A stretch of DNA of 64,000 bases from Candidatus Omnitrophota bacterium (GCA_028865345.1 JAGWKL010000003.1:128184-192183); one strand, 5' to 3'; positions 1 through 64,000 are shown, numbered from the stretch's first letter. Notes: generated from the sequence alone by a model not told the origin. Translations and numbers: made by a program.

Positions 1-172
<172 letters not shown>

Positions 173-179
173 TTTTTTT

Positions 180-4201: not shown

Positions 4202-4234
4202 TCCTGCTGTTTCTCCCGGCCCTGTGGGCGCATC

Positions 4235-49422: not shown

Positions 49423-51509
49423 TGAATATTCTGCAAATTTTACCGGAGCTCAATGTCGGCGGGGTCGAAACCGGCACCGTGGATCTGGCCGGGTACCTGG
49501 TGTCCCATGGGCATAAGTCGGTCGTGGTTTCCAACGGCGGCGGCCTGGTCGCGGGGCTCCAGTCCCAGGGGTCCAAGCATTACACCCTCCCTGTGCATGC
49601 CAAGAACCCCATCACAGCTTTTCGCTGTATCGGCAAACTGGCATCTATCATCCAGAAGGAAAAGATCGATATCGTGCATGCCCGTTCCCGGGTGCCGGCC
49701 TGGATCGCTTTTTTTGCCTGCCGGCGGACGGAAGCCCATTTTATGACCACCTGCCACGGGTATTACACGCCTCATTTCTTCAGCAGGGTGATGGGGTGGG
49801 GGAAGACCGTCATTGCCATCAGTGACGCCGTCGGCCGCCATATGGTCCATGATTTCAAAACACCGGCGGAAAATATCCGGGTCATCCCCCGCAGTGTTGA
49901 CCTGGAAAAATTCAGCGTCCCGCGTGCGCCTAAGTCCGATAAAAAGTCCTTCACGGTGGTGATGGTCGCCCGGATCACTCCTTTGAAAGGCCATTCTTAT
50001 TTTTTAAAAGCCATGGCCCGCGTGATCCGCCGTATGCCGTCAGTCAGGGTCAGGATCATCGGTGAAGCGCCGCCCAAGAAACAGGCTTATAAGGACGAGT
50101 TGGTATTATTGACCAGGCGTTTGGGGATTTCAGAGCAGGTTGAATTTATGGGTAACCGGCGGGACATTCCTCAATTGCTGAGCAAGGCCGATTGTTTGGT
50201 CCTTTCGACGGTGACCCAGGAAGCTTTTGGCCGGGTCATCATCGAAGCCCAGGCCGCCGGCGTTCCTGTGGTGGCGACGAGCGTGGGCGGAACGACGGAG
50301 ATCATCGAGCATGAGAAAACAGGGCTTCTGGTATTGCCCAAGGATGTGGAAGCCATGGCAGCCGCCGTATGGCGTGTTTTAAATGATCCTGATCTGGCCG
50401 CGGGCATGGTCCTGGAAGCCAAAAAGAAGATCGAAAGCCGCTATACGCTGGAGCGCATGGCTGAAGCGACCCTGTCTGTTTACAAGGAATTGATGCAGGC
50501 GACAAAGATCTTGGTCATTAAGATGACGGCCGTAGGGGACGTGGTTTTGTCCACCGCCGCCATCAGGTCTATCCGCCGGAAGTTCCCCCAGGGGCGCATT
50601 TATTGTTTGACTTCATCGCAGGCCGGCCCTGTTGTGGAAAGTTTGCCATATGTCGACGAGACATTACTGTTCGACGGCAGGGGCCGCAATGTCAAAGCGC
50701 TGTGGCGGACAGCCGCCGAATTGCGCGAGTTCAATTTCGACAAGGTGATAGACCTGCAGAACAACCGGACAAGCCATCTGCTGTCTTTTTTGGCCTTACC
50801 CAAAGAATCGTACGGGTACAATAACGGCAAATTTTCATTTCTTTTATCAAAAAAGATCAAAAACAATGTCCGTAATATCCCGCCGGTTGAGCATCAATTC
50901 AGGATATTGGCGATGCTCGGCATCGACTATACTCCGGATTTGAGGCTCGAGCTTCACCCCTCATCGAAGGATGATGCCTTTGTGCAGGAAATATTGGACA
51001 GTGAATGGCTCAGCAATCCGCAGGTTTTTGTGGGTTTGAACGTTTCCGCCTCTGTGAGCTGGCCTACGAAGAATTGGCCCCTGGAGCACATGGCCAAATT
51101 ATGCGACATTCTGGGATCCAAAAATGTCCGGGTGGTATTGACCGGTGAAAATAAAGACAGGCCCCTGGGCAGGCAATTGATCGCCCGCGCCCGTGCCAAA
51201 CCGGCCAGTTTCATCGGTAAAACTTCCATCATGCAGCTGGCCGCCCTGATCAAGCGCTGCCGGGTCTATATTTCACCGGATTCGGCGCCTTTGCACGTTG
51301 CGGCGGGCATGGGGGTGCCCATCATCGCCTTTTTCGGGCCCACCGACAGCCGGCGTCATATGCCGCCGTCGGACAAAAGTATCGTCTTGCACCGGCCTCT
51401 TAAATGTTCGCCGTGTTATTCGAATGTATGCAGGATCAGGACCCATGCCTGCATGACTGAAATTATGCCCGAAGAAGTGGCCCGAAAGGTCATGTCATTC
51501 ATCAAATGA
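49422..51509 (+). CDS. Fusion glycosyltransferase: GT4 (N-terminal ~360 aa) plus GT9 heptosyltransferase-like (C-terminal ~335 aa)
   Basis: N-terminal MNILQILPELNVGGVETGTVDLAGYL and EAFGRVIIEAQAAGVPVVAT (GT4 E-x7-E region). C-terminal KILVIKMTAVGDVVLSTAAIRSIRRKFPQGRIYCL (GT9 N-terminal signature). Confidence 0.75.
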   Translation: MNILQILPELNVGGVETGTVDLAGYLVSHGHKSVVVSNGGGLVAGLQSQGSKHYTLPVHAKNPITAFRCIGKLASIIQKEKIDIVHARSRVPAWIAFFACRRTEAHFMTTCHGYYTPHFFSRVMGWGKTVIAISDAVGRHMVHDFKTPAENIRVIPRSVDLEKFSVPRAPKSDKKSFTVVMVARITPLKGHSYFLKAMARVIRRMPSVRVRIIGEAPPKKQAYKDELVLLTRRLGISEQVEFMGNRRDIPQLLSKADCLVLSTVTQEAFGRVIIEAQAAGVPVVATSVGGTTEIIEHEKTGLLVLPKDVEAMAAAVWRVLNDPDLAAGMVLEAKKKIESRYTLERMAEATLSVYKELMQATKILVIKMTAVGDVVLSTAAIRSIRRKFPQGRIYCLTSSQAGPVVESLPYVDETLLFDGRGRNVKALWRTAAELREFNFDKVIDLQNNRTSHLLSFLALPKESYGYNNGKFSFLLSKKIKNNVRNIPPVEHQFRILAMLGIDYTPDLRLELHPSSKDDAFVQEILDSEWLSNPQVFVGLNVSASVSWPTKNWPLEHMAKLCDILGSKNVRVVLTGENKDRPLGRQLIARARAKPASFIGKTSIMQLAALIKRCRVYISPDSAPLHVAAGMGVPIIAFFGPTDSRRHMPPSDKSIVLHRPLKCSPCYSNVCRIRTHACMTEIMPEEVARKVMSFIK

Positions 51510-52606
51510 ATATTCTTTTTTTGACAACGCACCTCAATACCGGCGGTATAACAAGTTATGTGCTGACCCTGGGCGAAGGGTTGGTTAAGTCAGGGCATAA
51601 GGTATGGGTGGCCTCCAGCGGCGGGGATCGTGTGCCGCGCGTGGAAGAGTTGGGCATGCGGCATGTCACGCTCAACATCCGTACCAAATCGGAAGCCCAT
51701 CCCAAGGTATGGTTGAGTTTGGGGGCGCTTAGAAATCTGGTCCGGGAAGAAAAGATCGATTTGATCCATTCTCAGACAAGGGTCACCCAGGTTTTGGGTG
51801 CCGTATTGAGCCGTTTATCCTCTGTTGCGATGGTCACCACCTGCCACGGCTTTTTTAGGCCGCGCTGGTTCAGAAAAGCTTTCCCCTGCTGGGGCCGCGG
51901 CGTTATTGCCGTCAGTCGACCCGTGGCCAGGCATTTAAGCGAAGATTTCGGAGTTCCGCAAAACCGGATCCATCTGATCTTAAACGGCATTGATCTAAAG
52001 CGATTTGTGACTGATGCGCCCGGAGAGCGCAGATCGGTAAGGGAACAATGGGGCATCAGCGCTGCAGCGCCGCTCATAGGCATTATCGCGCGTCTCTCCA
52101 GTGTCAAAGGCATAGATATTTTGATCAAAGCCATGCCCGCCGTGCTTAAAGAGGTGCCCGAGGCCAGGTTGATTATTGTCGGGCAGGGGCCTGAAGAGTC
52201 CGCTTTAAAGAAACTGGCCCAGGACATGTCCCTGACACGGCAAGTGCATTTTAAAAATACCATCAACCAGACCCATGAAATTTTGTGCGCCTTTGATGTT
52301 TTTGTCATGCCTTCCTTGATGGAAGGCTTGGGGCTCTCGGTGATGGAAGCGCAGGCCTGCGGCATTCCGGTCGTGGCATCAAGGGTGGGAGGCCTGGTCG
52401 ACCTGATTATCGATGGCACAAGCGGCTTTCTTGTCCCCGTCCAGGATGAAAAGGCCCTGGGCGGGCGAATCGTTGAGTGCCTGGCCAACCCCCGGAAAGC
52501 GCAAGCCATGGCCAGGCAGGCGCGGTTGAATATCGAAAATTATTTTTCCGCCTCCATAATGGTTGAGAAAACCGTGCGTATTTATGAACAATATTCTTGT
52601 CGTTAA
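51506..52606 (+). CDS. Glycosyltransferase family 4
   Basis: MNILFLTTHLNTGGITSYVLTLGEGL and EGLGLSVMEAQACGIPVVASRVGG motifs. Confidence 0.8.
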   Translation: MNILFLTTHLNTGGITSYVLTLGEGLVKSGHKVWVASSGGDRVPRVEELGMRHVTLNIRTKSEAHPKVWLSLGALRNLVREEKIDLIHSQTRVTQVLGAVLSRLSSVAMVTTCHGFFRPRWFRKAFPCWGRGVIAVSRPVARHLSEDFGVPQNRIHLILNGIDLKRFVTDAPGERRSVREQWGISAAAPLIGIIARLSSVKGIDILIKAMPAVLKEVPEARLIIVGQGPEESALKKLAQDMSLTRQVHFKNTINQTHEILCAFDVFVMPSLMEGLGLSVMEAQACGIPVVASRVGGLVDLIIDGTSGFLVPVQDEKALGGRIVECLANPRKAQAMARQARLNIENYFSASIMVEKTVRIYEQYSCR

Positions 52607-53591
52607 TATCAATTGGCTGGGGGACGCGGTATTTTCCATCCCTGTTTTTAAAGCGCTCAAAAAGGCCTACCCGCAGGCAAGGATTTCCTGCTTGTGCGTG
52701 CCCAGGGTCAAGGAGGTGCTTGAGCATTGCCCTTATGTGGACAGGATCATTGTTTATGATGAAAAGGGCAGGCACCGTTATCCCTGGCAGAAATTAAAAT
52801 TGATCTTTACGTTGAGAAAAAAAAGATTCGACGCGGGCTTTTTGCTGCACCGTTCCATGACGCGCTCGCTCATGGTTTATCTTGCGGGGATACCCTTGCG
52901 CATAGGTTACGGGAAGGTCAAAGGCCTTTTGACCCACCCGGTTGCCATGGACGCGGAAGATATCCATCGCTGCGATTATTATTTAAAGGTGCCGCAGGCT
53001 TACGGGATCAAGGTCCAAACCCGCGTATGCGAATTGCGCCTGAAGCCGGAGGATATTCAAAGTCTGGATGTCAAATTAAGCGGGGCGGGGCTTGGAAAAG
53101 AAGAGAAGTATGTGGTATTGAATACCGGCGGAAACTGGGACCTGAAACGCTGGAGTCCGGATTCTTTCGCGCAGTTGGCCGGGCGCCTGCATGAACACAT
53201 GGGCCTGCGCGTCGTTTTTTCCGGAAGCGGGCAGGATCAAGAACAGTGCCAGCGCATTGCCGAAGCCTCCGGCATCCCTGCGGTGATCATGGCCGGAGCC
53301 ACGACGCTGGGAGAATCCCTGGCGCTTTATAAGCGGGCTTTGGTCGTGATTTCCGCGGACTCCGGGCCTTTGCACCTGGCCCACGGGGTGGGCGCCGATG
53401 TCATCGGGATCTATGGCCCCACGCGCCCCGAAATAACCGGCCCCAGGGGCAGCGGCCGCTGCTGCATCCTTTTTAATGGGGTGGGGTGCAATAAATCCCC
53501 TTGCTATCATCTGGCCTGCGGTAATAATATGTGCATGAAATCTGTGACGGTGGACGATGTTCTTCAAGCTTTCAAAAAATTCTGCGCCTGA
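52584..53591 (+). CDS. Glycosyltransferase family 9 (ADP-heptose:LPS heptosyltransferase-like), paralog 1
   Basis: MNNILVVNINWLGDAVFSIPVFKALKKAYPQARISCL; C-terminal DSGPLHLAHGVGADVIGIYGPT. Confidence 0.8.
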   Translation: MNNILVVNINWLGDAVFSIPVFKALKKAYPQARISCLCVPRVKEVLEHCPYVDRIIVYDEKGRHRYPWQKLKLIFTLRKKRFDAGFLLHRSMTRSLMVYLAGIPLRIGYGKVKGLLTHPVAMDAEDIHRCDYYLKVPQAYGIKVQTRVCELRLKPEDIQSLDVKLSGAGLGKEEKYVVLNTGGNWDLKRWSPDSFAQLAGRLHEHMGLRVVFSGSGQDQEQCQRIAEASGIPAVIMAGATTLGESLALYKRALVVISADSGPLHLAHGVGADVIGIYGPTRPEITGPRGSGRCCILFNGVGCNKSPCYHLACGNNMCMKSVTVDDVLQAFKKFCA

Positions 53592-54537
53592 ACGTATTTT
53601 GGTCTTCAGCCTCACGAATATCGGGGATGTGGTCCTCACATGCCCGGTCATTGATATTTTGCGTGAGAGTTTCCCTCTGGCCCGGATGGATGTGATGACC
53701 GGCCCCAAGGCGTCCTCACTTTTTGAGGATAATCCTTATTTCGGCATCAAGGTATTTGATAAGCACGCCACCATGCGCAAAAAGCAGGCGTGGTTTTCAG
53801 AGCTTCGCGCCCAGCGCTATGACTGTGTGGTTGACCTGCGCCGCACCATGCTGCCTGTTTTTTTAATGCCCAAATATGCCACGCCGGTCGCCTCATTCCA
53901 TTCTTTCAAAGGCCATAAAAGGCAGGCGCACTTAAATCATCTGCGCAGGGTTTATCATTTCGATCGTCAGGCGAGCCAGAGGTACGCTGTATTTACGACC
54001 GGAGAAGATGAGCGGTTTTTTGCCCGGAACGTGGAGCCTTTTTTAGAGGGCCGGAAATTCGCGGTGATCGCGGCAGGCACGGCTTCCGGGGAAAAACGCT
54101 GGCATGCCCAGGGTTTTATGGCTGTCGCCGATTATTTATCAGAGTCAACCAGGGTCGTTTTTGTGGGGGATACAAAAGACAGGCAGTTCATCGAATATAT
54201 CCGGGCAGGCATGAAAAACCCATCGCTGTCTTTGGCAGGCAGGATCAATTTACGGCAGGCGGCTTATGTTTTAAAGCGGTGCTCGTGGGCCTTGACCCAT
54301 GACAGCGGCATCATGCATCTGGCGTCTTATTTGGATGTGCCGCTGGTCGCCCTCTGGGGGCCCAGCCCTTTGGAAAAGTACGCGCCGTGGTCGGCAAAAT
54401 ATGTGGTTGTCAGGCGCAATGAACAATGCGCCCGCTGTCAGGACCCCAAGGCGAAGCCCGAACATAGCTGCATGTCCTTTATCGGGCCGGATGATGTCAT
54501 CAACGCCATTAAAGAGTTGCGTGATGAAAATCACTAA
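53557..54537 (+). CDS. Glycosyltransferase family 9 heptosyltransferase-like, paralog 2
   Basis: ILVFSLTNIGDVVLTCPVIDILRESFP; DSGIMHLASYLDVPLVALWGPS. Confidence 0.75.
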   Translation: MFFKLSKNSAPERILVFSLTNIGDVVLTCPVIDILRESFPLARMDVMTGPKASSLFEDNPYFGIKVFDKHATMRKKQAWFSELRAQRYDCVVDLRRTMLPVFLMPKYATPVASFHSFKGHKRQAHLNHLRRVYHFDRQASQRYAVFTTGEDERFFARNVEPFLEGRKFAVIAAGTASGEKRWHAQGFMAVADYLSESTRVVFVGDTKDRQFIEYIRAGMKNPSLSLAGRINLRQAAYVLKRCSWALTHDSGIMHLASYLDVPLVALWGPSPLEKYAPWSAKYVVVRRNEQCARCQDPKAKPEHSCMSFIGPDDVINAIKELRDENH

Positions 54538-55549
54538 GTTGTTCCATAATGTTTTGATCGTCCGTACCGACCGTATCGGAGACGTGGTGCTGACCACTCC
54601 GGCCATCAAGTCTTTGCGGCACACTTATCCCACGGCGCGCATATCCATCCTGGTCGGCCCGTCGACCAGGGATTTGGTGGACGGCAATCCGTATCTCGAT
54701 GAAGTCCTCGTCGATGAGCGCCAGGGGCGGCATCAGGGACTGTTGGGCTTCTTAAGATTGGCGCTCCAGCTGCGATCCCGGCATTTCGACCTGGCTGTGA
54801 TTTTTCATACCAAGCGCCGGTACAATCTGGCCTGCTGCCTGGCGGGCATCCCTTGCCGGCTGGGATATAAGAACGATAAATACGGATTTTTACTCACCCA
54901 TCCTTTAAAAGACACCAGACACCTCGGCGAAAAACATGAGGCGCAATATTGCAAGGATGTTTTAAGGCCCTTAGGCATCGAGGACGACGAGATGGGGGTC
55001 TTCGTGCCGCTGCAGCCGGAGGCGGAGGCGTGGGCGCTCGGAACCATGCGGGAAAACAGCCTGGTTTCCAATGAATTTATCGTCGTCCATCCGGGCGCCT
55101 CAGACCCGGCCAAGCGCTGGCCGGCGGCTGATTTTGCGAGGGTCATGGAGAGTTTGATCCAGCGGCATCCTTTTAAGATCGTTTTGATCGGCGCACCCCA
55201 GACGGCTCCTGTGGCGGCAGAAATCCTGCGCCTTGTGCCCCAGGCGTCCCAATGCTTGAATCTGACCGGACACACGACGGTGGCCCAAATGGCCAGTTTG
55301 TTGAGGCGCTCGCGATTGCTTATCTCCAATGATTCCGGTCCGGTGCATGTGGCGGCCGGGGTGGGAACAAGTGTTATTTCCATCTTTATGCGGGACGATC
55401 CGGGGATCAATGTGAAACGCTGGAAACCCCTGGGGGCCAGAAGCCATGTCTTGAACAATAAATTCCATCCCGGGGCCGTCAAGGCGGAAGATGTCCTGAA
55501 ATTGGTCGAGCAGATATTCCGCAAAAACAGCCAGTATGAAATATTTTAG
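54524..55549 (+). CDS. Glycosyltransferase family 9 heptosyltransferase-like, paralog 3
   Basis: MKITKLFHNVLIVRTDRIGDVVLTTPAIKSLRHTYPTARISIL; DSGPVHVAAGVGTSVISIF. Start ATG 54524 chosen over the longer out-of-family N-terminus. Confidence 0.8.
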   Translation: MKITKLFHNVLIVRTDRIGDVVLTTPAIKSLRHTYPTARISILVGPSTRDLVDGNPYLDEVLVDERQGRHQGLLGFLRLALQLRSRHFDLAVIFHTKRRYNLACCLAGIPCRLGYKNDKYGFLLTHPLKDTRHLGEKHEAQYCKDVLRPLGIEDDEMGVFVPLQPEAEAWALGTMRENSLVSNEFIVVHPGASDPAKRWPAADFARVMESLIQRHPFKIVLIGAPQTAPVAAEILRLVPQASQCLNLTGHTTVAQMASLLRRSRLLISNDSGPVHVAAGVGTSVISIFMRDDPGINVKRWKPLGARSHVLNNKFHPGAVKAEDVLKLVEQIFRKNSQYEIF

Positions 55550-55610
55550 CTATGATCGGTGATTCGTAGTAAAATATCTATAGTCTCCAAGAAAGGACCG
55601 GTGTTTTTTT

Positions 55611-55841
55611 ATGAAATACAAATGGCTGCCCGTATTTGATGCTGACAATTGTTCACAGTGCAGGGCTTGTGCCCCGGCCTGCCTTTGCGGTGCTATAAAG
55701 TTGAGTGAAGGCAGTATCCGTTTTGACCCGGAACTTTGTTGCAGCAGCGGCCGGTGCATTGACTCATGCCCGATAGGGGGGATCCATATGGAATGGGTGC
55801 CTTTCTTCGGTGATGCCGGCCACGGTCTTGTCAGGGCGTGA
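55611..55841 (+). CDS. Small 4Fe-4S ferredoxin-like protein
   Basis: Two cysteine clusters CSQCRACAPAC and CCSSGRCIDSCP in 76 aa. Confidence 0.65.
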   Translation: MKYKWLPVFDADNCSQCRACAPACLCGAIKLSEGSIRFDPELCCSSGRCIDSCPIGGIHMEWVPFFGDAGHGLVRA

Positions 55842-55872
55842 TTTAATCCCATATTTGTGTCTACAACATGCG

Positions 55873-55911
55873 GCCTCCGTCAGATTGTGTACTCTGCCGG
55901 AGGTTTTTGTT
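55873..55911 (+). terminator. Rho-independent terminator-like hairpin after the ferredoxin gene
   Basis: GCCTCCGTCAG-(10 nt)-CTGCCGGAGG imperfect stem followed by TTTTTGTT. Confidence 0.5.
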
Positions 55912-55978
55912 CAGGTTTTCATAGGGTTTAAGGCCGCAGGATCATTTTTGGGATGGTCCGGAAAAAATGGAGGTGTGT

Positions 55979-56182
55979 ATGTTTGAGAATTTGAATATAA
56001 GATTGAGGAGATTGGACGTTGGGGATATTGGTTTGGTCAAATGGGCCTGCGTTGTGTTCGGGATCGTCCTGGCCAAATTTTTCCCGCAGTTATTGCAAAT
56101 CAATTATATTGTTTTGGTGGCGCTCATGCTGGTCTTCAGTGTCAGGCCGACATATAAGTTTTGGATCAAGAAGGCGGCTTAA
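55979..56182 (+). CDS. Small hydrophobic membrane protein, hypothetical
   Basis: GGAGG SD 5 nt upstream of ATG 55979; two hydrophobic helices. Confidence 0.4.
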   Translation: MFENLNIRLRRLDVGDIGLVKWACVVFGIVLAKFFPQLLQINYIVLVALMLVFSVRPTYKFWIKKAA

Positions 56183-56200
56183 GTCCGCCGGGGGCGGAAC

Positions 56201-56707
56201 ATGCTTCAAACCAATAAGAAATACAACTTTGCTTTCGGCAGACGCAAGGTCGTCATCAATAAACTTTCCCACGAAGGGGAGTTTCATCCCTATGCCAAAG
56301 CGTTGGTCTTTGCCCTGTACCACAAACAGTACCGTTCGCTTCGCCTCGAGCCCCAGCTGCCGGACGAGCGTTTTCAGCCTGATTTATGCGCCATGGATTA
56401 CGACGGCACCATGCTGTTCTGGTCCGAGGTGGGCAATGTTTCTCTGTCAAAGATCGAAAAACTTTTTAAGAAATACCGCAGGGCCCATTTTGTGTTTGTC
56501 AAAGAACAACAGGATGTGCCGGGCTTTGAAAAACATCTTTCCAAACTTGTCAAATCATGTTCAAGCCTTCCGTTGATCGACATTGTGGTCTATCCGCCGC
56601 ATTTTCAGGAATGGAATGTCAGCCCGCAAGGGGATGTTTTTATCCGCAAAGAAGACCTGGAAATTGTCCGCTGGCACACGCCCCAAGGGCATAAAGAGCA
56701 TTTTTAG
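56201..56707 (+). CDS. YaeQ-family protein (putative)
   Basis: Pattern YNFAFG...FHPYAKALVFALY...PDL...LFWSEVGNVS...KKYRRAHFVFV parallels the YaeQ consensus (YKF...HPSE...PDL...LWVEVG...VVV). Confidence 0.55.
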   Translation: MLQTNKKYNFAFGRRKVVINKLSHEGEFHPYAKALVFALYHKQYRSLRLEPQLPDERFQPDLCAMDYDGTMLFWSEVGNVSLSKIEKLFKKYRRAHFVFVKEQQDVPGFEKHLSKLVKSCSSLPLIDIVVYPPHFQEWNVSPQGDVFIRKEDLEIVRWHTPQGHKEHF

Positions 56708-56727
56708 AGGCGGCAAGGGAGGGGTTT

Positions 56728-57387
56728 ATTAGAACGCTTACCGTTGCAGAGATCCAGGAATTAGACCGGTGGGCTATTGGGGCTGTGGGGATTCCGTCGC
56801 TGGTCTTGATGGAAAATGCCGGCCGCGGTGTCGCGCTGCACGTTTGCAAATATTTAAAACGTCGGAGAATGTCCAGGGTCGTCATTGTGTGCGGGGCGGG
56901 GAATAACGGCGGCGATGGTTTTGTGGCTGCCCGTTACCTGTTTAACTTTGGTTTCAGGCCCAGCGTATTTTTTATCGGGGCCCTCTCCAAACTGAAAGCG
57001 GATGCTTTGGTCAATTACCGCGCGGCAAAAAACTTGAAGATCCCTGTCAAGCCTGTCCGCCGGGAGGATGCTGCTTTCAAGAAGGCCCTTCGATCGGCAG
57101 ACGTCATCGTGGATGCGATTTTCGGCGTTGGCTTGAACCGTTCTCTTGAGGCCCCGTATGACGGGATCATTGGGGCCATTAACGCCTCCAATGCGTACGT
57201 GGTCGCGGTTGATGTCCCTTCAGGACTGGATGGCACCGGCGGGGGGATTTACGGCATTTGTGTTGTGGCCGACCTGACCGTGACTTTTAGTTTTCCCAAG
57301 AAAGGTTTTTTCAAAAAGCACGCAGCACGTTACACAGGGAGGGTTGCGGTCGTTGATATCGGCATTCCCGTAAGGACCCGTTTGTGA
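56728..57387 (+). CDS. nnrE: NAD(P)H-hydrate epimerase (YjeF N-terminal domain, NnrE)
   Basis: VVIVCGAGNNGGDGFVAARYL and VDVPSGLDGTGG motifs. Homology (TVAEIQELDRWAIGAVGIPSLVLMENAG) extends upstream of the first GTG (56785). The only SD-positioned in-frame start there is ATT at 56728, 5 nt after GGAGG. Confidence 0.6.
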   Translation: MRTLTVAEIQELDRWAIGAVGIPSLVLMENAGRGVALHVCKYLKRRRMSRVVIVCGAGNNGGDGFVAARYLFNFGFRPSVFFIGALSKLKADALVNYRAAKNLKIPVKPVRREDAAFKKALRSADVIVDAIFGVGLNRSLEAPYDGIIGAINASNAYVVAVDVPSGLDGTGGGIYGICVVADLTVTFSFPKKGFFKKHAARYTGRVAVVDIGIPVRTRL

Positions 57388-57487
57388 ATTCATTGATTGA
57401 AAGGCCGGATTAAGGTATCATTATTTCCAAGCGTTATTCCCAATCCATCAGCCGTATTTCAATAACGAGGGCATAGAACGCGCGACT

Positions 57488-58612
57488 ATGATGCAACAGG
57501 TCAGCCGGCAAAATAAGATCCGCATCGTGAACTTGAATCCCGGATGTGAGCCTTCAGGGATCCTGTTGAATAAAATTGTCATGTTTTTGCGCGTCAATGG
57601 TTATGAGTACACTTTTGACACGGAAGCGTCGTGCGATGTCGTTTTGATCAACAGTTGCTGCGTGTCCAACGCCATGATGTCAAAGATGAAAATAATGATC
57701 TCTGAGACCCTTGAGGAGGGGCAGGTTAAGAAAGTCATTATTTTCGGTTGCTTTGTTCCTTTCGCCGAAGACAGGGGGAATGATGCGCGGGTTATAATGA
57801 TCGGGCCGAAAGAGGCGGAGGAATTCGATCAATTGTTTGCGCACAGGATACCCATCGGACATGTCCCTGCCGGCCGCTTGAATTCCCGCTTGTTCAGGCC
57901 GCATCAACTCATGGATGCCGATGAGGACTATTTTGTACTGATTTGCCAGGGATGCACGCAAAACTGCAGTTACTGTAATATCAAGCGGGCCAAGGGCCGC
58001 ATCACCAGCCGCAGCGCGGAGCAGATCATCAAGGATATTCAGCAGGGGCTTAAGGAGGGCAAGAAGAACTTCGTTCTTGTAGGGGACGATTGCGGAAGTT
58101 ACGGTGTGGATCTAAAGACCGATTTGGCGTGCCTGGTCAGGGAGATCATTGACGCATGTCCGGACATTCGATTAAAAATCAATTATGTCTACCCCGGCCG
58201 TTTGATACATCTTTTTCCCTCCCTTGCGGGCAGTATTGTTTCGGGTAAAATCATTTATATGTGCGTTCCCCTGCAGTCAGGTTCAAAAAGAATTTTGAAA
58301 TTGATGAACCGGGACTATGACCTGGGCCGTTTAAGGGACATCGTGACGGAGATTAAAAAGATCGCCCCTTCTCTTTGGATCTATACCCATATGATCGTCA
58401 ATTTCCCGACAGAGACAATGGAAGATCTCGAGGACACATTACAGGCGGCCGAATGGTTTGATGATTTCGTTCTTTTTAATTATTCGGATAATCCCATGAC
58501 CGCGGCAAGCAGGTTTTACCCGAAAGTGGAAGGCCAAGAACAGGCCCAACGTTTAAGAGTTTGTATGAATAGGATCAAAAACATCCATTGCGGCAGGCTG
58601 GACCAGATTTGA
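57488..58612 (+). CDS. Radical SAM protein of the MiaB/RimO-like methylthiotransferase family, lacking a TRAM domain
   Basis: N-terminal MTTase-domain cysteines (NPGCE, NSCCV, FGCFVP) plus radical SAM CTQNCSYC (CxxxCxxC); 374 aa with no C-terminal TRAM-like extension. Confidence 0.75.
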   Translation: MMQQVSRQNKIRIVNLNPGCEPSGILLNKIVMFLRVNGYEYTFDTEASCDVVLINSCCVSNAMMSKMKIMISETLEEGQVKKVIIFGCFVPFAEDRGNDARVIMIGPKEAEEFDQLFAHRIPIGHVPAGRLNSRLFRPHQLMDADEDYFVLICQGCTQNCSYCNIKRAKGRITSRSAEQIIKDIQQGLKEGKKNFVLVGDDCGSYGVDLKTDLACLVREIIDACPDIRLKINYVYPGRLIHLFPSLAGSIVSGKIIYMCVPLQSGSKRILKLMNRDYDLGRLRDIVTEIKKIAPSLWIYTHMIVNFPTETMEDLEDTLQAAEWFDDFVLFNYSDNPMTAASRFYPKVEGQEQAQRLRVCMNRIKNIHCGRLDQI

Positions 58613-58747
58613 ATTAAATCATCCTAATAAATAATTTATCTACCCGAAAAAATCCATATACAGCCTGTAAATTTATTGTATAATTCGAATTCAGTTCATG
58701 GCTTGGTGGAATATGAATAAGGCTATGCTATACTTTGCTATCGCTTC

Positions 58748-58786
58748 GCTGGATTAGCTTAAGTTGGTAGAGCAGCTGATTTGTAA
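58748..58786 (+). pseudogene. tRNA-Thr(UGU)-like 5' fragment (acceptor 5' strand, D-arm, anticodon 5' stem and loop only); probable integration-site remnant
   Basis: GCTGGAT-TA-GCTT-AAGTTGGTA-GAGC-A-GCTGA-TTTGTAA closely parallels bacterial tRNA-Thr(UGU) up to position 38. Downstream sequence cannot pair to complete the anticodon stem, T-arm or acceptor. Confidence 0.45.
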
Positions 58787-58907
58787 AGCCTCCGAAAAAA
58801 TTTCCGCAACATGCTCCAATTCTTGTATTTAGGTCTACTGCCAATAAGTTACGAGAAAATTTGTTAGACACATTTTGCTACAAAATGGCCTGTTTTGGCA
58901 TCCTTTT

Positions 58908-59023
58908 TAGCACGCCGTTAGCACATTTTTGAACCTTAAGAAACTGAGTATCACTCAGCTTATTCAACTAAAGGGACAATAAATGGGTATTTTAATAGCC
59001 CTGCATAGCACGCTATTAGCACA
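58908..59023 (+). repeat. Two 18-nt direct repeats TAGCACGCCGTTAGCACA / TAGCACGCTATTAGCACA (each containing a TAGCAC-N5-TAGCAC internal repeat) 98 nt apart, upstream of the higBA promoter
   Basis: Repeats at 58908-58925 and 59006-59023. Further palindromes CATTTTG-CTA-CAAAATG (58871-58887) and CTGAGT-ATC-ACTCAG (58943-58957) lie in the same spacer. Confidence 0.45.
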
Positions 59024-59032
59024 CAAGCTTCT

Positions 59033-59060
59033 TGACAAATATCTCAATATGAGATATACT
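59033..59060 (+). promoter_or_regulatory. higBA promoter (TTGACA-16-TATACT) with overlapping 8-3-8 palindromic operator ATATCTCA-ATA-TGAGATAT
   Basis: -35 59033-59038; -10 59055-59060; perfect palindrome 59039-59057 between/overlapping them; GAGGAGG SD at 59071-59077. Confidence 0.6.
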
Positions 59061-59082
59061 TCTACCAGATGAGGAGGTAAAG

Positions 59083-59373
59083 ATGCATGTTATATCAAGG
59101 AGGGCGTTACAGGTCTTTTGGGAAAAGTATCCAGACAGCGAAGAGCCCCTTAAGGTCTGGTTTAAGATTATCAGGTTATCAGAATACGAAGGATTTAATG
59201 ATTTGAAGAAAACATTTGGTTCGGTAGACAAAGTCGGAGACAAATATGTGTTTAATATCGGGCGCAATAAGTATCGGTTGATTACAGCCATCCATTTTAA
59301 TGTCGGAAGGGTTTACATACGGGCTGTTTTGACACATAAAGAGTACGATAAAGAGGAGTGGAAAAATGGTTAA
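59083..59373 (+). CDS. higB: Type II toxin HigB (RelE/ParE-fold mRNA interferase)
   Basis: MHVISRRALQVFWEKYPDSEEPLKVWFKIIRL...VFNIGRNKYRLITAIHFNVGRVYIRAVLTHKEYDK is a near-canonical HigB; toxin gene precedes antitoxin. Confidence 0.9.
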   Translation: MHVISRRALQVFWEKYPDSEEPLKVWFKIIRLSEYEGFNDLKKTFGSVDKVGDKYVFNIGRNKYRLITAIHFNVGRVYIRAVLTHKEYDKEEWKNG

Positions 59374-59770
59374 AACAATCAATGAACCGGTTTTGAAAAA
59401 GACTTGGCCTGCCGTTGAGCAACATCTCTCTATTCATACAAAACAGGATTATAACAATGCCATTGCTGTGCTTAATCGTTTGTTAGATGAAGTTGGTGAT
59501 AATGACAGGCATCCTCTGTATGGCTTTTTAGAGATTTTGGGCATTGTTATAGAAAACTATGAAACAGAACATCATCATTGGGAAGATGCGTCAGGGGTTG
59601 AGGTGCTTAAAGTTTTAATGGAAGAGCACAATCTAAACCAAGCCGATCTTCCTGAAATAGGTTCCCAAGGAGTTGTTTCAGAAATATTGAACGGTAAAAG
59701 ACAATTAAATGTGAACCAGATCAAGAAATTAGCCGAAAGATTTAATGTAGGCCCAGCTGTTTTTTTATGA
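59366..59770 (+). CDS. higA: Antitoxin HigA (XRE-family HTH)
   Basis: Overlaps higB by 8 nt; C-terminal HTH ...NQADLPEIGSQGVVSEILNGKRQLNVNQIKKLAERFNV. Confidence 0.85.
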   Translation: MVKTINEPVLKKTWPAVEQHLSIHTKQDYNNAIAVLNRLLDEVGDNDRHPLYGFLEILGIVIENYETEHHHWEDASGVEVLKVLMEEHNLNQADLPEIGSQGVVSEILNGKRQLNVNQIKKLAERFNVGPAVFL

Positions 59771-59926
59771 AAGAATTAAACGGCGGGCTTTGCGCTGGCC
59801 ACAAACATTTCGCATAAATTCGTAACCAACAATTGATTATTTGTTAAAACCAACAAATTCATAATTTAACATTTGTTACCTAACAATATAGACTATTTTA
59901 GTAGTTGTTTGGTAATAGGAGGGGTT

Positions 59927-60247
59927 ATGCGTGGTGTTATTAAAGGGGTGTTGGCAGAAGAATTGCAAAATTCTTTGCGGATGCAAAAGGATTATGAATC
60001 CGCTTTGTCAAAATTACCACAAGGATGCCTTGTTCAAAAGAGAATCAGGGGACATCTGTATTGGTATATAGTGAAAAGAGAGGGGAATAAGGTAAAGCAT
60101 TTATACAAAGGCAAACTATCATCAGAAGAAATTAATAAATATCAGGAGGCCAAATCTCTCAGGGCTCAATATCGTCACGCGTTATCTAAGCTTAAGAAGC
60201 AGATTAAGTTCTTAAAAGGGGTGTTACGTGGAAAAGAGCCAATATAA
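59927..60247 (+). CDS. Small basic hypothetical protein (R-G-H-L-Y-W-Y ... R-E-G-N-K-V-K-H-L-Y-K-G-K motif; C-terminal coiled-coil), mobile-element-associated type
   Basis: AGGAGGGG SD then ATG 59927. The motif resembles a small-protein family (possibly DUF6788) that I recall from mobile-element contexts. It is preceded by TTGTTA/TAACAA palindromes. Confidence 0.45.
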   Translation: MRGVIKGVLAEELQNSLRMQKDYESALSKLPQGCLVQKRIRGHLYWYIVKREGNKVKHLYKGKLSSEEINKYQEAKSLRAQYRHALSKLKKQIKFLKGVLRGKEPI

Positions 60248-60446
60248 TTTATGCGTTGCAATATTAATAAGGCTTAGATGCCAGATGGATGCCAAGAAAT
60301 TATCAGTCTACGGAGAAGACGTATCGTTCGCAATGAGAAACGGCCCCCCGCGGCAACCTCACGTATTTCCAGCCTGATTGTCATTCTCCGTCGATAAATT
60401 CAATATTCTTGCTTTTAGATTGTTTAGGATTTTTTAGGTTTCCTTG

Positions 60447-60464
60447 ATTGTGACCAGTCACAAT
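60447..60464 (+). promoter_or_regulatory. Perfect palindrome ATTGTGAC-CA-GTCACAAT, candidate operator ~40 nt upstream of membrane-protein paralog A
   Basis: 8-bp arms with a 2-nt centre, read from sequence. Confidence 0.45.
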
Positions 60465-60504
60465 TTAGACACCAAAAACGATGCGGTCTATCCGGGGGGG
60501 TAAT

Positions 60505-60906
60505 ATGATCCGAAACTTTTGCTCTAAACTGGCTGACTATAACTACCGAGTCCTTTGGGCAGAGGCTGTGGTTTTGTCCGTGATCATTGGTGCCGGACTG
60601 GCCTCCTGGCCGGGCGTTATTGTGCTTCTGGCGGTCCTGACATGGGTTTTGGACCGAAAGCAGGGGAAAGTACTGCTTATAGGCCTTTTTAGCCTGACCT
60701 GGGGCCTGCTGGCTGGAATGATAGGTTTTGGTTTAGGTGGATGGGCCTGGGCTCTGTTATTGGGCAGCCTGGCCTTGATAAGCGGGGTGAAGATCCATTG
60801 CCGGGATTTGAAAAGGCCCTTTGTTCAGGCTTATAACGATTTTAAGATGCTAAATGCTAAGGAATTGAGAGAGAGCTGGATTATAGGAAGACAAAATTTA
60901 AATTAG
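60505..60906 (+). CDS. Small polytopic membrane protein, paralog A of a three-member family in this island
   Basis: G-rich SD before ATG 60505; ~4 predicted TM helices; glycine-rich GFGLGGWAWALLLG segment. Homologous to the 62433-62846 product and the 62043-62150 fragment. Confidence 0.6.
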   Translation: MIRNFCSKLADYNYRVLWAEAVVLSVIIGAGLASWPGVIVLLAVLTWVLDRKQGKVLLIGLFSLTWGLLAGMIGFGLGGWAWALLLGSLALISGVKIHCRDLKRPFVQAYNDFKMLNAKELRESWIIGRQNLN

Positions 60907-61069
60907 AGTCAATATGTTACGAAAGTAAACCATTTAAACAATTTTGTTTCTCTCCGTTCATTTTCTACAGAAAATATCATAATTTGATATCATAAATCTA
61001 AGGATGCCACAGGAGATATCAGATGCGTCCTTATTCATAATTCAAATTGGGACGAGGAAGGATAATTAA

Positions 61070-61789
61070 ATGTGTTTACCTGAGCCGCCTAAATGGAAAG
61101 AAGATGCAATTACAAAATTTATTGGGGATGTACAGCACAATGCTTACGTTACATTTGTTAAATATTCAACTGAGTTTTCCCGTTTAATTGAGGTCGATAG
61201 CCTATTCCGAGAAGCGATTGGTTGTACCAATAATGCCAAATTTTGGTTTGCTTGTTTATTTCCTTTAAAAGCGCATTCGGCATTTTTGAGTGCTGTTCAA
61301 TTAATAATGGGTACTCAAGCGCAAGAATCGTACATGGTGATGAGGGGGACTATTGAAAATGCATTGTACGGCTACTATATTTTTAAACATAAAGAATTGG
61401 CCGAAGTGTATTTAAAAAGAGACGAAAATTTACAAACCAAACGAGAGATGAAAAAAAGATTCCAGAATAAAGCAATTATTGAGGAATTAAAGGCAGACGA
61501 AATGTCATTGGGAAGTGCGGTAGAAATATTATATGAAAGGGTGATTGATTTTGGTGCACACCCAAATGAGAAATCATTATCATCAGCGTTGAAGAGAACA
61601 GATTTAAAAGATGGTGTCCGATTTGACGTCAGTTATTTAACAGATAATCCTAAGGTAATAGAGCTTGGCTTAAAGACGGTAACCCAAGTGGGTATAGCTT
61701 GTGTTAAAATAATAGAGTTGCAATTTCCGGAAAGATTTAAGATTGTTGGTCTATCAGATAAGATTCAATCGATTAGTCGGTTTTTTTAA
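61070..61789 (+). CDS. Hypothetical 239-aa soluble protein, low-GC, with R-x6-H motif (ERVIDFGAHPNE) suggestive of a HEPN-type domain
   Basis: GAGGAAGG SD 7 nt upstream; no TM or signal peptide; a strong intrinsic terminator lies 64 nt downstream. The HEPN assignment is from the motif only. Confidence 0.6.
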   Translation: MCLPEPPKWKEDAITKFIGDVQHNAYVTFVKYSTEFSRLIEVDSLFREAIGCTNNAKFWFACLFPLKAHSAFLSAVQLIMGTQAQESYMVMRGTIENALYGYYIFKHKELAEVYLKRDENLQTKREMKKRFQNKAIIEELKADEMSLGSAVEILYERVIDFGAHPNEKSLSSALKRTDLKDGVRFDVSYLTDNPKVIELGLKTVTQVGIACVKIIELQFPERFKIVGLSDKIQSISRFF

Positions 61790-61852
61790 GACGTACTGAT
61801 TTGTAAACTAAAAAAGCTCCAAAACGCAATTTCTTCAAAATCAATAACTTAA

Positions 61853-61885
61853 CCCTTTCACCGTCGGTGGAAGGGTTTTTTATTT
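61853..61885 (+). terminator. Rho-independent terminator after the 239-aa gene
   Basis: CCCTTTCACCG-T-CGGTGGAAGGG (11-bp stem, one G-U) followed by TTTTTTATTT. Confidence 0.6.
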
Positions 61886-61958
61886 GCCAACCATCAGGTA
61901 TGATTACGCCTCATTGGGTATGCAAAGTGGACACCAATACGGACACCAAAGATAGACC

Positions 61959-62025
61959 GTCATTCTGAGCGAAGCGAAGAATCTCTAAAAGAACAACCCA
62001 TGTCATTCCCGCGAAAGTGGGAATC
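61959..62025 (+). repeat. Two related ~25-nt hairpin elements GTCATTC...GCGAA...GAATC (second is ATTCCCGC-GAAA-GTGGGAAT with a GNRA loop), plus tandem GGACACCAA repeats just upstream
   Basis: 61959-61983 and 62002-62025; GGACACCAATACGGACACCAA at 61927-61947. Confidence 0.35.
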
Positions 62026-62042
62026 CAGAAACGGAGGAATAA

Positions 62043-62150
62043 ATGTTAAATAAATTTAAAGATCATAATTACCGGGTTTTGTGGGTTGAGGCCGTGGTTT
62101 TGGCGGTGATTATTAGAGTGGAGTCATGTTGGGTTTATCACCAAAAATAA
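62043..62150 (+). pseudogene. Truncated paralog B of the small membrane-protein family (35 codons: MLNKFKDHNYRVLWVEAVVLAVII... then unrelated tail and stop)
   Basis: About 75% nt identity to codons 10-33 of paralog A (KLADYNYRVLWAEAVVLSVII); own GGAGGAA SD; homology ends abruptly near 62130. Confidence 0.5.
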
Positions 62151-62154
62151 CGAC

Positions 62155-62183
62155 TTGACATCATTCATGATTAAATTTACTAT
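62155..62183 (+). promoter_or_regulatory. Candidate promoter TTGACA-17-TACTAT for paralog C
   Basis: -35 62155-62160, -10 62178-62183; direct repeats CAGACTGATG at 62318-62327 and 62370-62379 lie in the leader. Confidence 0.35.
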
Positions 62184-62432
62184 TGCCTTTTATAATGTTT
62201 ATAAAAATCGTTCCATTCGTATTAGCATCATTCCTTCTCTTCAATCTTCCTTAGTTTTGCTGACTTAACTGCTAGTCAACAGATGAGCGGTCAGTTCCGC
62301 GCCAGTGAAAATCAGTTATCCAGACTGATGCTCTATGCTTTTAATCGTCAGTCCTTTGATTTAACGCAGACTGATGGTTCACATGTTTTGTGTCATAGCA
62401 CACTTTTAAACTGAATTAGAACGGGGGATGAT

Positions 62433-62846
62433 ATGTTAGAACTTATCAGAAAGGGTGCAAAATTAAGCGAAGAAAATCGTCCATTGCTTTGGTCCGAAGT
62501 GGCGTTATTTTCAGTATTGGCTGGCTTAGTATGTCATTCATGGGTAGTTTTTATTTTAGTTGCTGCCATGTTGTCGTGGGTTATGACCACACGCAATGGC
62601 ATGTTTTATATAATTTTTGCAATAAGTATATTATGGGCATTGATGCCAGCCTGCTGGGGGCTTGCTGGTGGAGGCTGGCTCTGGGCGCTTATTGTAGGTG
62701 GGACAGTTCTATTATGGGCTTTTAAGGTTCATGTCAATGGACTCAAATGGCAATGGGATGAACTAGTCTATAAAAGCGATAATACTGTTGAATGGAAGCA
62801 AATGTTTTGGAGTGGCCCCAACGCAAATCGGATTCCTCGTGTATAA
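62433..62846 (+). CDS. Small polytopic membrane protein, paralog C (same family as 60505-60906)
   Basis: Alignable with paralog A over about 100 aa (LWSEVALFSVLAGL..., GLAGGGWLWALIVGG); ~4 TM. Confidence 0.6.
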   Translation: MLELIRKGAKLSEENRPLLWSEVALFSVLAGLVCHSWVVFILVAAMLSWVMTTRNGMFYIIFAISILWALMPACWGLAGGGWLWALIVGGTVLLWAFKVHVNGLKWQWDELVYKSDNTVEWKQMFWSGPNANRIPRV

Positions 62847-62948
62847 AATTTGACTTTTTAGACAAGAGACCATAAAATACTAAAAATTGAAAGCAGTGGT
62901 GCCGTTTGAGGGGTAAATCCGCCACTTTAAAATAACTAAACACCTCCG

Positions 62949-63311
62949 TTGGACGCAATGTGTCTGGCGGGGGATTTTTTATTTATTATGGGAATTCCTG
63001 ATTTGGATACAGTAAGGGGGAAGATTCAAGATTGGGGGATTAAAAATCCTCGGATCATCAGGGCATACTTGTATGGTTCTTTTTTAACCAAAAAGAAATC
63101 TTCACCTGGGGATATTGATATAGCTATAGAAATAAGCAGCCAGAAGAATGATACTGCCTCCGGATTTTGGTGTGGAGAAGGTAAGAAAATGGAAGAGGAA
63201 CTATCAATCCTTTTAGCATATAAGGTCGACTTAGAGTGGTTAAACGATAGATCGCACATTGTAAAAAAAGGATTGGCTGACGGATCGTTATTGATTTATG
63301 AGGCAGGTTAG
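62949..63311 (+). CDS. Minimal nucleotidyltransferase (MNT, Pol-beta superfamily), the antitoxin-type partner of HEPN/MNT modules; no adjacent HEPN gene
   Basis: YLYGSFLTKKKSSPGDIDIAIE (GS-x9-13-DxD) motif; an alternative start at 62988 (MGIPDLDT) is possible. Confidence 0.65.
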   Translation: MDAMCLAGDFLFIMGIPDLDTVRGKIQDWGIKNPRIIRAYLYGSFLTKKKSSPGDIDIAIEISSQKNDTASGFWCGEGKKMEEELSILLAYKVDLEWLNDRSHIVKKGLADGSLLIYEAG

Positions 63312-63326
63312 GAGTAGAATTGCCAC

Positions 63327-63755
63327 ATGACAAAGGTCATTGAAATATTTAAGGTTGATATTGCCCTCAAAAAGTCTTTACCGTTGTATCTTTCCAGCAT
63401 TAAGGCCGGGTTTCCTTCGCCGGCAGAAGATTATTTAGACAAGAAACTGGACTTAAACGAGCATTTGATCAAGCATCCGACATCCACCTTCTTTGTGAAG
63501 GTCAAGGGGGATTCGATGGTGGGCACCGGTATCAATTCTGGAGATATTCTCATTGTTGACCGGTCCATCGAGGCCAAGAGCGGCAAGGTCGTTGTCGTTA
63601 TCCTTAACGGTGAGTTTACCGTCAAAAGATACCAGAAAAGGCAGGACAGGGTCTTTCTGCTGGCGGAAAACCCTGAGTACGGGCCTATCGAGATCGTTGA
63701 CGGGATGGACTTTGAGATTTGGGGAGTTGTGCTTCATGTGATTCATTCGGTATAG
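63327..63755 (+). CDS. umuD: UmuD/LexA-like S24 peptidase (translesion-synthesis UmuD-type)
   Basis: GDSMVGTGINSGDILIVD Ser nucleophile and downstream K in GEFTVKRY; 142 aa. Confidence 0.8.
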   Translation: MTKVIEIFKVDIALKKSLPLYLSSIKAGFPSPAEDYLDKKLDLNEHLIKHPTSTFFVKVKGDSMVGTGINSGDILIVDRSIEAKSGKVVVVILNGEFTVKRYQKRQDRVFLLAENPEYGPIEIVDGMDFEIWGVVLHVIHSV

Positions 63756-63767
63756 GAGAGGTGAGCA

Positions 63768-64000
63768 GTGAATAAGGTACTGGCAAACAAGATAGCGATC
63801 CTTAAAAAGAAACTTGAATCCCAAGCGGTCAATGTCCCTGATGACGTTATCCTTTACATTGCCCAAAAAACAAAAACTGCTGAACTTGTTGAAACCCTAA
63901 TCCATGTAATAGTGTACTCAATCGTAGTAGAAAGCCCTATTACGCTTGTCCTTGCCGAAAAGGCCTTAAAATCACCTAAGTATATTCTTGCGATAAGACG
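63768..64000 (+). CDS. Partial ORF (5' end only; continues beyond window), unknown function, not UmuC-like
   Basis: GTG 63768, open to window end (77 codons: VNKVLANKIAILKKKLESQAVNVPDDVILYIAQKTKTAELVETL...); GAGAGGTGAG SD-like upstream. Confidence 0.3.
   Translation, partial: MNKVLANKIAILKKKLESQAVNVPDDVILYIAQKTKTAELVETLIHVIVYSIVVESPITLVLAEKALKSPKYILAIR

Follow-up and report, generated by a model that had tools for sequence, protein, structure and literature searches.

How does AT-rich accessory DNA come to abut a GC-richer chromosomal region in a Candidatus Omnitrophota bacterium, and does a partial tRNA gene at the junction mark the place where that DNA entered? The locus lies in a 64,000-nucleotide (nt) stretch (GCA_028865345.1 JAGWKL010000003.1:128184-192183), the whole of which is here called the window. 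tRNA genes are classic integrase targets, and an initial annotation of the window had described a switch to an AT-rich island at 58.6 kb, beside a fragment resembling the 5′ part of a tRNA-Thr(UGU) gene. We report that the fragment, at 58748-58786, is probably the displaced 5′ half of the chromosomal tRNA-Thr(UGU) gene and forms the left end (attL) of an island inserted by a tyrosine integrase in the reversed orientation, in which the 5′ rather than the 3′ part of the tRNA gene is carried by the element and a 5′ fragment is left behind.

A tRNA-Thr fragment at a composition boundary

GC content lay between 0.47 and 0.57 in all 1-kb intervals of positions 1-58000 and between 0.37 and 0.42 in those of positions 58001-64000, with averages of about 0.52 left of 58.6 kb and about 0.39 in the island. 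A 200-nt profile placed the drop at about 58500-58700, in agreement with the switch described at 58.6 kb and directly 3′ of the stop codon of a MiaB/RimO-like radical S-adenosylmethionine (radical-SAM) gene (57488-58612), which is the upstream neighbor of the boundary. The NCBI annotation assigns this radical-SAM protein to metagenome-assembled genomes of Candidatus Omnitrophica/Omnitrophota. Genes farther upstream encode lipid A and heptosyltransferase-type functions, as indicated by the gene tables of sister contigs. Low GC content persisted in the 1-kb intervals to position 64000, which indicates that the island continues past the window. Besides this foreign composition (GC content of 0.39 versus 0.52), the island varied between strains, as sister contigs depart from the window sequence or stop at 60.8 kb. 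All credible open reading frames (ORFs) of the island were on the + strand. The intergenic spacers had been described as full of palindromes, which was an overstatement: promoter-like sites (17 versus 15.5 expected from shuffled sequence) and terminator-like sites (8 versus 4.7 ± 2.1) were close to the expected numbers, and an inverted-repeat scan of 58600-64000 found no attC-like or long imperfect hairpins between genes.

The radical-SAM gene is followed on the + strand by an AT-rich spacer of 135 nt (58613-58747), within which lies a promoter-like site (58657-58684), and then by the tRNA fragment (58748-58786; + strand), which reads GCTGGATTAGCTTAAGTTGGTAGAGCAGCTGATTTGTAA and comprises positions 1-38 of tRNA-Thr(UGU) plus one extra base in the D loop. 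Genome contigs were scanned with a loosened 5′-half pattern, and the scan provided a reference set of at least 120 intact tRNA-Thr(UGU) genes from many phyla. These listed genes read GCTGGnnTAGCTCA(G/A)TTGGTAGAGCAGCTGATTTGTAA and continue with TCAG..., which closes the anticodon stem. Besides two free acceptor-stem positions, the window copy differed from them by a C-to-T change in the D stem and by one inserted A, and its similarity to tRNA-Thr was lost right after TTTGTAA, at the 3′ edge of the anticodon loop. The match to so many real genes up to TTTGTAA, with few changes, bears out the proposed identity of the fragment, a tRNA-Thr(UGU) 5′ part that ends at the anticodon loop. Position 6 (58753) is A in the window and C in both sister contigs, in contig L125 (described below), and in one listed gene, L061. 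An acceptor-stem pair would be lost through the change at position 6, in keeping with a sequence released from selection. Taken together, the D-arm change, the insertion, and the strain-variable acceptor-stem position suggest a stranded half in decay. A tRNA 3′ half was found nowhere in the 64-kb window, and the species' own intact tRNA-Thr(UGU) copy was not among the matches listed in the genome-contig scan.

ARAGORN called no tRNA at 58748-58786 and four tRNAs elsewhere in the window, none of which was tRNA-Thr. The Rfam tRNA model gave no match to the fragment in a 6-kb scan. Covariance models permit truncation only at the ends of the searched stretch, and when the stretch was cut at 58787, positions 1-38 of 71 aligned as a 3′-truncated match (14.4 bits; E value, 0.47), a score that is weak alone. 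The covariance-model check proposed in the initial annotation gave this weak partial match on the cut stretch and none in the 6-kb scan. No intron family, group I included, matched in the 6-kb Rfam scan at an E value of ≤10, and with no 3′ half in the window, an intron-interrupted tRNA gene was rejected as an explanation.

The fragment and an adjoining arm recur beside an integrase gene

Two contigs of metagenome-assembled genomes (MAGs), L001 and L002, matched positions 47488-60824 of the window at about 99.4% identity, a span that includes the tRNA fragment, the sequence past it, higBA, and a DUF6788-like gene. In L001, the sequence that follows a membrane-paralog gene includes ATTTGTAA, after which come 39 nt that are 85% identical to the window sequence past the tRNA fragment. 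When the metagenome collection was scanned with a conserved part of this sequence, CCGCAACATNCTNCAATTCTTGTA, one match was obtained, L125, and no match to the pattern was found in viral contigs.

L125 is a contig of 1740 nt that carries, all on the + strand and in this order, the C terminus of an integrase, an 80-nt spacer, a tRNA-Thr(UGU) 5′ half, an arm sequence, and a toxin-antitoxin-like pair. Of the integrase, a tyrosine recombinase with the motif HDLRHT...LGH...RY, the C-terminal 132 residues are encoded. The tRNA half is canonical and is cut at exactly the same base as that of the window. The arm of about 175 nt (L125 positions 539-720) is about 80% identical to window positions 58787-58965 on the + strand, which we call the element-side arm, or P′ arm. 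The window arm contains TCCGCAAC at 58803, a TAGCAC-N5-TAGCAC pair at 58908-58925, and a hairpin at 58938-58964, and both the pair and the hairpin are conserved in L125. A second TAGCAC pair lies at 59006-59023 (+ strand), and 4 of the 6 TAGCAC copies in the 64-kb window fall within 58908-59022. The small toxin-antitoxin-like ORFs of L125 are unrelated to the higBA genes of the window. The arrangement in L125 indicates that the fragment plus the arm is a recurring unit that adjoins an integrase gene, and L125 itself would be either a free attP or the junction of tandem copies.

As the initial annotation had stated, the visible island lacks an integrase: none of the relevant family was found in the window, and none was found in 58787-64000. 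A tblastn search with the L125 integrase fragment gave a sole match in the window (32% identity; 44831-45079), which is probably a housekeeping Xer-type gene unrelated to the island.

Related integrase genes directly precede intact tRNA genes

Homologs of the L125 integrase were numerous, and the named ones were mostly from Omnitrophota. In all contexts read, an integrase gene on the + strand was followed after 1 to 90 nt by an intact tRNA gene on the same strand and, in the longer contigs, by cellular genes. The 5′ end of the tRNA gene faces the integrase gene, which is the reverse of the usual layout. The tRNA gene that follows the integrase was tRNA-Met in L126 and L127, tRNA-Gln in L128, tRNA-Lys(CUU) in L129, tRNA-Lys in L214-L218 (with anticodon CUU in L214 and L216-L218), and tRNA-Thr(CGU) in L210, L212, and L213; in L210, it starts directly after the integrase stop codon. 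Integrases that are 80 to 84% identical over their C-terminal ~130 residues adjoin Thr, Met, and Lys genes. In L126 and L127 alike, a frameshift splits the small-island integrase beside tRNA-Met. A co-oriented tRNA-Ser(UGA) gene of L126 is preceded (1-6303, 9531-10585) by type IV secretion system genes (TrbI, TraV, and TraG-like), by Fic, and by a gene for a 361-amino-acid (aa) integrase with 57% identity to the clade, and this region may be a conjugative element with the same reversed layout.

Other integrases served as controls. An integrase-like gene was found near 4 of 120 intact tRNA-Thr(UGU) loci among the matches listed, and it was always on the 3′ side. Viral relatives with 30 to 40% identity and an adjacent tRNA were mostly convergent with that tRNA, L147 being the exception. 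In L131, a 47%-identical integrase is followed by the 3′ half of tRNA-Arg(CCU) on the opposite strand (10797-10870), and the contig has no intact tRNA; L131 is the canonical counterpart of the flipped arrangement. Geometry is kept relative to the integrase gene, in the order integrase, ~40 nt of tRNA, core, and P′ arm, and it is the core that is flipped. We infer that such a flip comes easily because the anticodon stem-loop has two-fold symmetry.

tRNA 5′ halves bound the islands of relatives

Two loci of the clade, L128 and L210, combined a short island with enough upstream sequence. Positions 1-38 of the tRNA are repeated in L128 at 6351-6388 (35 of 38 identical to the intact gene at 10627-10701), which gives an island of 4.2 kb, and in L210 at 4627-4664 (38 of 38 identical to the intact gene at 10695-10770), which gives an island of 6.0 kb. 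The 3′ edge of the anticodon loop is where both repeats stop, and the called genes of the two islands all share the orientation of the tRNA. Both relatives therefore have the 5′-part repeat with an intact gene downstream that marks the reversed type of insertion. The relatives' 38-nt repeats end at the same tRNA position as the window fragment, in support of the earlier suggestion that the fragment breaks at an integrase crossover point. It had also been suggested that the far end of the island would carry a repeat of the tRNA 3′ half, and that suggestion must be reversed, since this clade carries the 5′ half and the repeats of the relatives cover positions 1-38. The clean 38-nt direct repeats of tRNA halves were also the reason for which we dropped the idea that the junction is a transposon end starting with TGT....

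The 3′ ends of the integrase ORFs contain paired short direct repeats, CAGCACAAA in L210 (10600-10695) and GGACACT in L128 (10533-10553). Each repeat has a further copy in the P′ arm, about 130 to 150 nt past the core, in parallel with the TAGCAC pairs of the window, and the paired repeats may be arm-type binding sites.

A contig with an attP-like region was found among viral sequences. L130, an IMG/VR contig of 14.9 kb that is read as circular, has a direct repeat of 127 nt at its ends. Among its genes are those for an HK97-type capsid, a D5-like primase, two tyrosine recombinases, and a resolvase. Its 55%-identical integrase is followed by the 5′ half of tRNA-Met (positions 1-37), and no tRNA-Met 3′ half was found in the whole contig. 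The sequence GGTGACA forms only two pairs in L130, one on each side of the tRNA half (10059-10327), and one of these pairs is inside the integrase coding region. Judged by its sequence, the integrase-plus-half region looks as expected for the attP of an element that carries a tRNA 5′ half. An attP carrying the tRNA 5′ part is accordingly represented among the relatives by L125, with its tRNA-Thr half and arm, and by L130. The same tRNA cut point as in the window recurs at five independent integrase-adjacent loci, in L125, L128, L210, L130, and the phage contig L219 (described below).

We propose that the island entered by tyrosine-integrase recombination at the anticodon loop of the tRNA-Thr(UGU) gene. 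The attP of the element would lie just downstream of its integrase gene and would carry a copy of the first ~38 nt of the tRNA. Integration would then fuse the 5′ half supplied by the element to the chromosomal 3′ half, such that an intact tRNA gene would stand at the right end, directly behind the integrase. The chromosomal 5′ half would be stranded at the left end and would be followed by the P′ arm (58787 to about 58965) and by co-oriented cargo. At the far end, beyond 64000, the model predicts an integrase gene and then an intact hybrid tRNA-Thr(UGU) gene whose first 38 nt are the repeat. We infer that the crossover took place in the anticodon loop, any point in the 38-nt identity block being formally possible, and that the half in the window is the chromosomal one. 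A displaced tRNA fragment does stand at one end of the island, and it is the 5′ part, as the reversed type requires. We conclude that 58748-58786 is likely the attL of a reversed-orientation island; the presence of an intact integrase and tRNA to the right of 64000 is given slightly better than an even chance.

Cargo genes and sister strains

The best sigma-70-like promoter of the region (TTGACA-17-TATACT; 59032-59060) lies ahead of higB (59083-59373; PF09907, 1e-27) and of a gene for a HigA-like helix-turn-helix (HTH) antitoxin (59366-59770; HTH_3). Like these features, all those that follow are on the + strand. HigB and HigA also match the PADLOC profiles PD-Lambda-2_A (3e-27) and PD-Lambda-2_B (7e-22) of a candidate anti-phage system, and the match of the HigA-like protein spans only profile positions 7-114 of 402. 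Next is a small-protein gene (59927-60247) with a weak DUF6788 match in the sister contigs; a DUF6788 gene is also present in the L126 island. It is followed by a membrane-protein gene (paralog 1; 60505-60906), a gene for a 239-aa protein with a subthreshold DUF5677 match (61070-61789), and an intrinsic-terminator-like hairpin with a T run (61851-61877). Farther on are a truncated membrane-paralog copy that corresponds to the gene 5′ end (62044-62130; 78% identical to 60539-60588) and another full membrane-protein gene (paralog 3; 62433-62846), the product of which is 35% identical to paralog 1 (E value, 1e-18). After a second intrinsic-terminator-like hairpin with a T run (62943-62973) come genes for an orphan MNT or MntA-like nucleotidyltransferase (62988-63311) and a UmuD-like S24 peptidase (63327-63755; NCBIfam, 168 bits versus a cutoff of 110), and finally an ORF that is cut by the window end (63768-64000). 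HigBA, MNT, the UmuD-like protein, and the membrane paralogs, all called earlier as mobile cargo, were thereby confirmed.

The ORF at 63768-64000 lies directly 3′ of the UmuD-like gene, where umuC would be expected, and contains a weak DnaA stretch (TIGR00362 positions 272-337; 32 bits versus a cutoff of 344). Two palindromic motifs, GTCATTCTGAGCGAAGCGAAGAATCTC (61959-61985) and GTCATTCCCGCGAAAGTGGGAATCC (62003-62027), lie just upstream of the truncated paralog and, we presume, resemble the widespread repetitive extragenic palindromic (REP)-like intergenic repeats. A direct repeat of the GACACCAAA type occurs at 60461-60476, upstream of paralog 1, and at 61935-61950, upstream of the truncated paralog, and may be a shared regulatory site.

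The match to the sister contigs breaks off at 60.8 kb, some 2.2 kb inside the island, in or just after the paralog 1 gene. One contig ends after the paralog gene, and the other, L001, goes on with unrelated sequence, such that the gene for the 239-aa protein is missing after the paralog gene. Most differences from the window, 84 of 121 in one sister contig and 104 of 138 in the other, lie within the paralog 1 gene, which may be diversifying or may be a hot spot of recombination with its paralogs. The comparison of sister contigs indicates that the island is common to the strains at its left end and strain variable further in.

The core of the tRNA fragment has a second copy inside the island. 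The 12-mer CTGATTTGTAAA, which covers the anticodon stem and loop, has just two exact occurrences in the 64 kb, at 58776 and 61796, and the second copy (61796-61807; + strand) begins 7 nt past the stop codon of the 239-aa ORF. The copy is followed by CTAAAAAA, as is also the case at a site in L001 (site B) that consists of the core and a P′ arm and lacks both an integrase and a tRNA half. Both places may be trimmed relics of tandem insertions or secondary att sites.

Discussion

Several observations weigh against insertion of the island at a chromosomal tRNA-Thr gene. The right end, with its integrase and intact tRNA-Thr, is a prediction, as the window stops at 64000. Comparison with related strains, which had been proposed in the initial annotation, showed that sister strains share the junction and then vary but gave no island-free relative with an empty site; the nearest radical-SAM homologs were 56 to 57% identical and belonged to unrelated radical-SAM clusters. 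L126 has no 5′-half repeat within 10 kb, and no decayed tRNA-Met or tRNA-Ser half was found upstream. The core-like copies at 61796 and at L001 site B are unexplained by a simple one-element model. Lastly, the left flank shares a 15-mer, TAATAAATAATTTAT (58625-58639), and a 9-mer, TGTAAATTT (58666-58674), with the spacer between the integrase and the tRNA half of L125, which is unexpected if the flank is purely chromosomal and which occurred in 0 of 2000 shuffles. Either the element captured the half together with its promoter from the host lineage, or the window holds an internal P-core-P′ junction minus its integrase. In the latter case, the tRNA half and its upstream flank would be borne by the element as the P arm of a tandem junction or a former attP from which the integrase was deleted, and the island would begin at 58613. 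In addition to the shared k-mers, the GC content begins to drop at about 58600 and not at 58787, and L125 is itself a P-core-P′ arrangement. We nevertheless regard an element-borne flank as unlikely: the 135-nt spacer contains no integrase remnant, intergenic DNA is AT-rich anyway, the shared k-mers could equally be a host tRNA promoter captured by the element, and the window fragment is more decayed than the L125 copy, as expected of a stranded half. Less doubtful, but still improbable, is a degraded relic, an alternative raised in the initial annotation, in which the junction arose as proposed and the integrase, and perhaps the restored tRNA, was since deleted to leave a fixed, immobile region. 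A relic would account for the absence of an integrase from 5.2 kb of island when whole islands of relatives measure 4 to 6 kb; decay of the fragment points the same way, the truncated paralog and the core-only sites suggest past deletions, and the frameshifts in L126 and L127 show that integrases of this family do decay. Content that differs between 99.4%-identical strains, however, argues for recent turnover, the integrase of L125, next to a canonical half and the same arm, looks intact, and the window ends before the island does.

The one-directional cargo invites comparison with integrons. In an integron-like platform, the tRNA half would serve as an attI-like site, and copies of the core (TTTGTAA plus arm) would bound exchangeable cassettes. 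The ORFs do lie on one strand, toxin-antitoxin pairs and MNT are typical cassette cargo, the same platform holds a different toxin-antitoxin pair in L125, and copies of the core or the arm are present at 61796 and in the L001 tail. Such a platform is very improbable, as the inverted-repeat scan gave no attC-like imperfect hairpins, the clade integrases scored 69 bits on the integron-integrase model TIGR02249 against a cutoff of 265 and the window has no such gene, L128 and L210 are plain islands bounded by 5′-half repeats with the integrase at the far end, and there are only two or three core-like sites, one of which is merely a 12-mer. Reuse of the core at 61796 and L001 site B might instead reflect a modular array, in which pieces are swapped singly by the tRNA-targeting integrase in an integron-like manner; we consider this a long shot, and if it were true, the stranded tRNA promoter would drive the one-directional cargo. 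Better supported is a milder version, in which an Omnitrophota integrase clade has flipped to replacement of the tRNA 5′ half, with the restored tRNA gene behind the integrase and with ready retargeting. Exceedingly improbable, finally, is that the fragment is a chance resemblance, one part of an intron-split gene, or the product of an unrelated deletion. The empty results of ARAGORN and of the unrestricted Rfam scan, and the weak truncated match, would be accommodated, but the few differences from intact tRNA-Thr(UGU) genes of many phyla and the cut point shared by five independent integrase-adjacent loci would not, nor would the lack of a group I intron match and of a 3′ half. We conclude that a displaced chromosomal 5′ half at the left end of a reversed-orientation island is the preferred reading of the locus.

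Like canonical tRNA islands, the island and its relatives combine a tyrosine integrase that targets a tRNA gene with restoration of that gene, an identity block bounded by the anticodon loop, a displaced fragment that marks the far end, and AT-rich, strain-variable cargo. They differ from canonical islands, which carry the 3′ part of the gene and leave a 3′ fragment, in that the element carries the 5′ part and leaves a 5′ fragment behind and in that the integrase gene of the Omnitrophota clade directly precedes the restored tRNA gene in the same orientation. Sublocation classes were reportedly defined by Williams in 2002, with canonical islands and prophages that cross over in the anticodon loop. 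Elements normally carry the tRNA 3′ part, and the regenerated gene and the displaced fragment mark the island ends, as used by the Islander database, the configuration filter of which anticipates 5′ fragments upstream of the tRNA gene (PMC4383910). Recombination with the 5′-distal part of a tRNA gene is described elsewhere as "considerably less frequent," with citation of Zhao and Williams 2002 (J Bacteriol 184:859) and a few archaeal cases (PMC6563490). The Omnitrophota elements are like those reversed-orientation elements in recombining with the 5′-distal part, and, so far as the cited cases are portrayed in the citing paper, they are set apart as a clade-wide trait over at least five tRNA species with the tRNA 1 to 90 nt after the integrase stop codon.

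Two further systems bear comparison. The phage contig L219 (IMGVR_UViG_3300013426_000012) also has a tRNA-Thr(UGU) 5′ half, cut at the identical base, beside an integrase. Within 12990-13365 of L219, a TTGACA-17-TATAAT promoter precedes the tRNA half, the integrase gene follows about 200 nt downstream, and ORFs upstream are tail-like by resemblance. Unlike in the clade, the integrase of L219 is downstream of the half and the tRNA is the variant GCTGGTATAGCTCAG; the contig was found by DNA pattern. L219 is an unrelated-looking, putatively independent example of 5′-half replacement at the same tRNA. Integrons and clusters of attC sites lacking integron-integrases (CALIN) share with the island the one-directional small accessory genes, the toxin-antitoxin pairs, and a position beside a tyrosine-recombinase site. 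They differ in having attC sites and an IntI-type integrase, neither of which is present here, and the islands of the relatives are instead bounded by tRNA-half repeats. We conclude that the mechanism is already known and that what is new is the host phylum, the consistency across a clade over at least five tRNA species, and the tight spacing of integrase and tRNA.

For practical annotation, a 5′ tRNA half pins the island boundary to the base, and it predicts an integrase and a hybrid tRNA-Thr gene beyond the window. Routine annotation may overlook or mis-score a lone 5′ half, as may island-finding programs geared to 3′ fragments. The boundary also helps to explain why MAG contigs break at this locus, which is of use in genome binning. 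For the Omnitrophota, a phylum with little characterization of its mobile elements, the analysis documents a clade of integrases. Because the restored tRNA gene of that clade lies 1 to 90 nt after the integrase stop codon, its expression may depend on sequence supplied by the element, and if so, element-dependent expression of a tRNA would be a lever for retention of the element.

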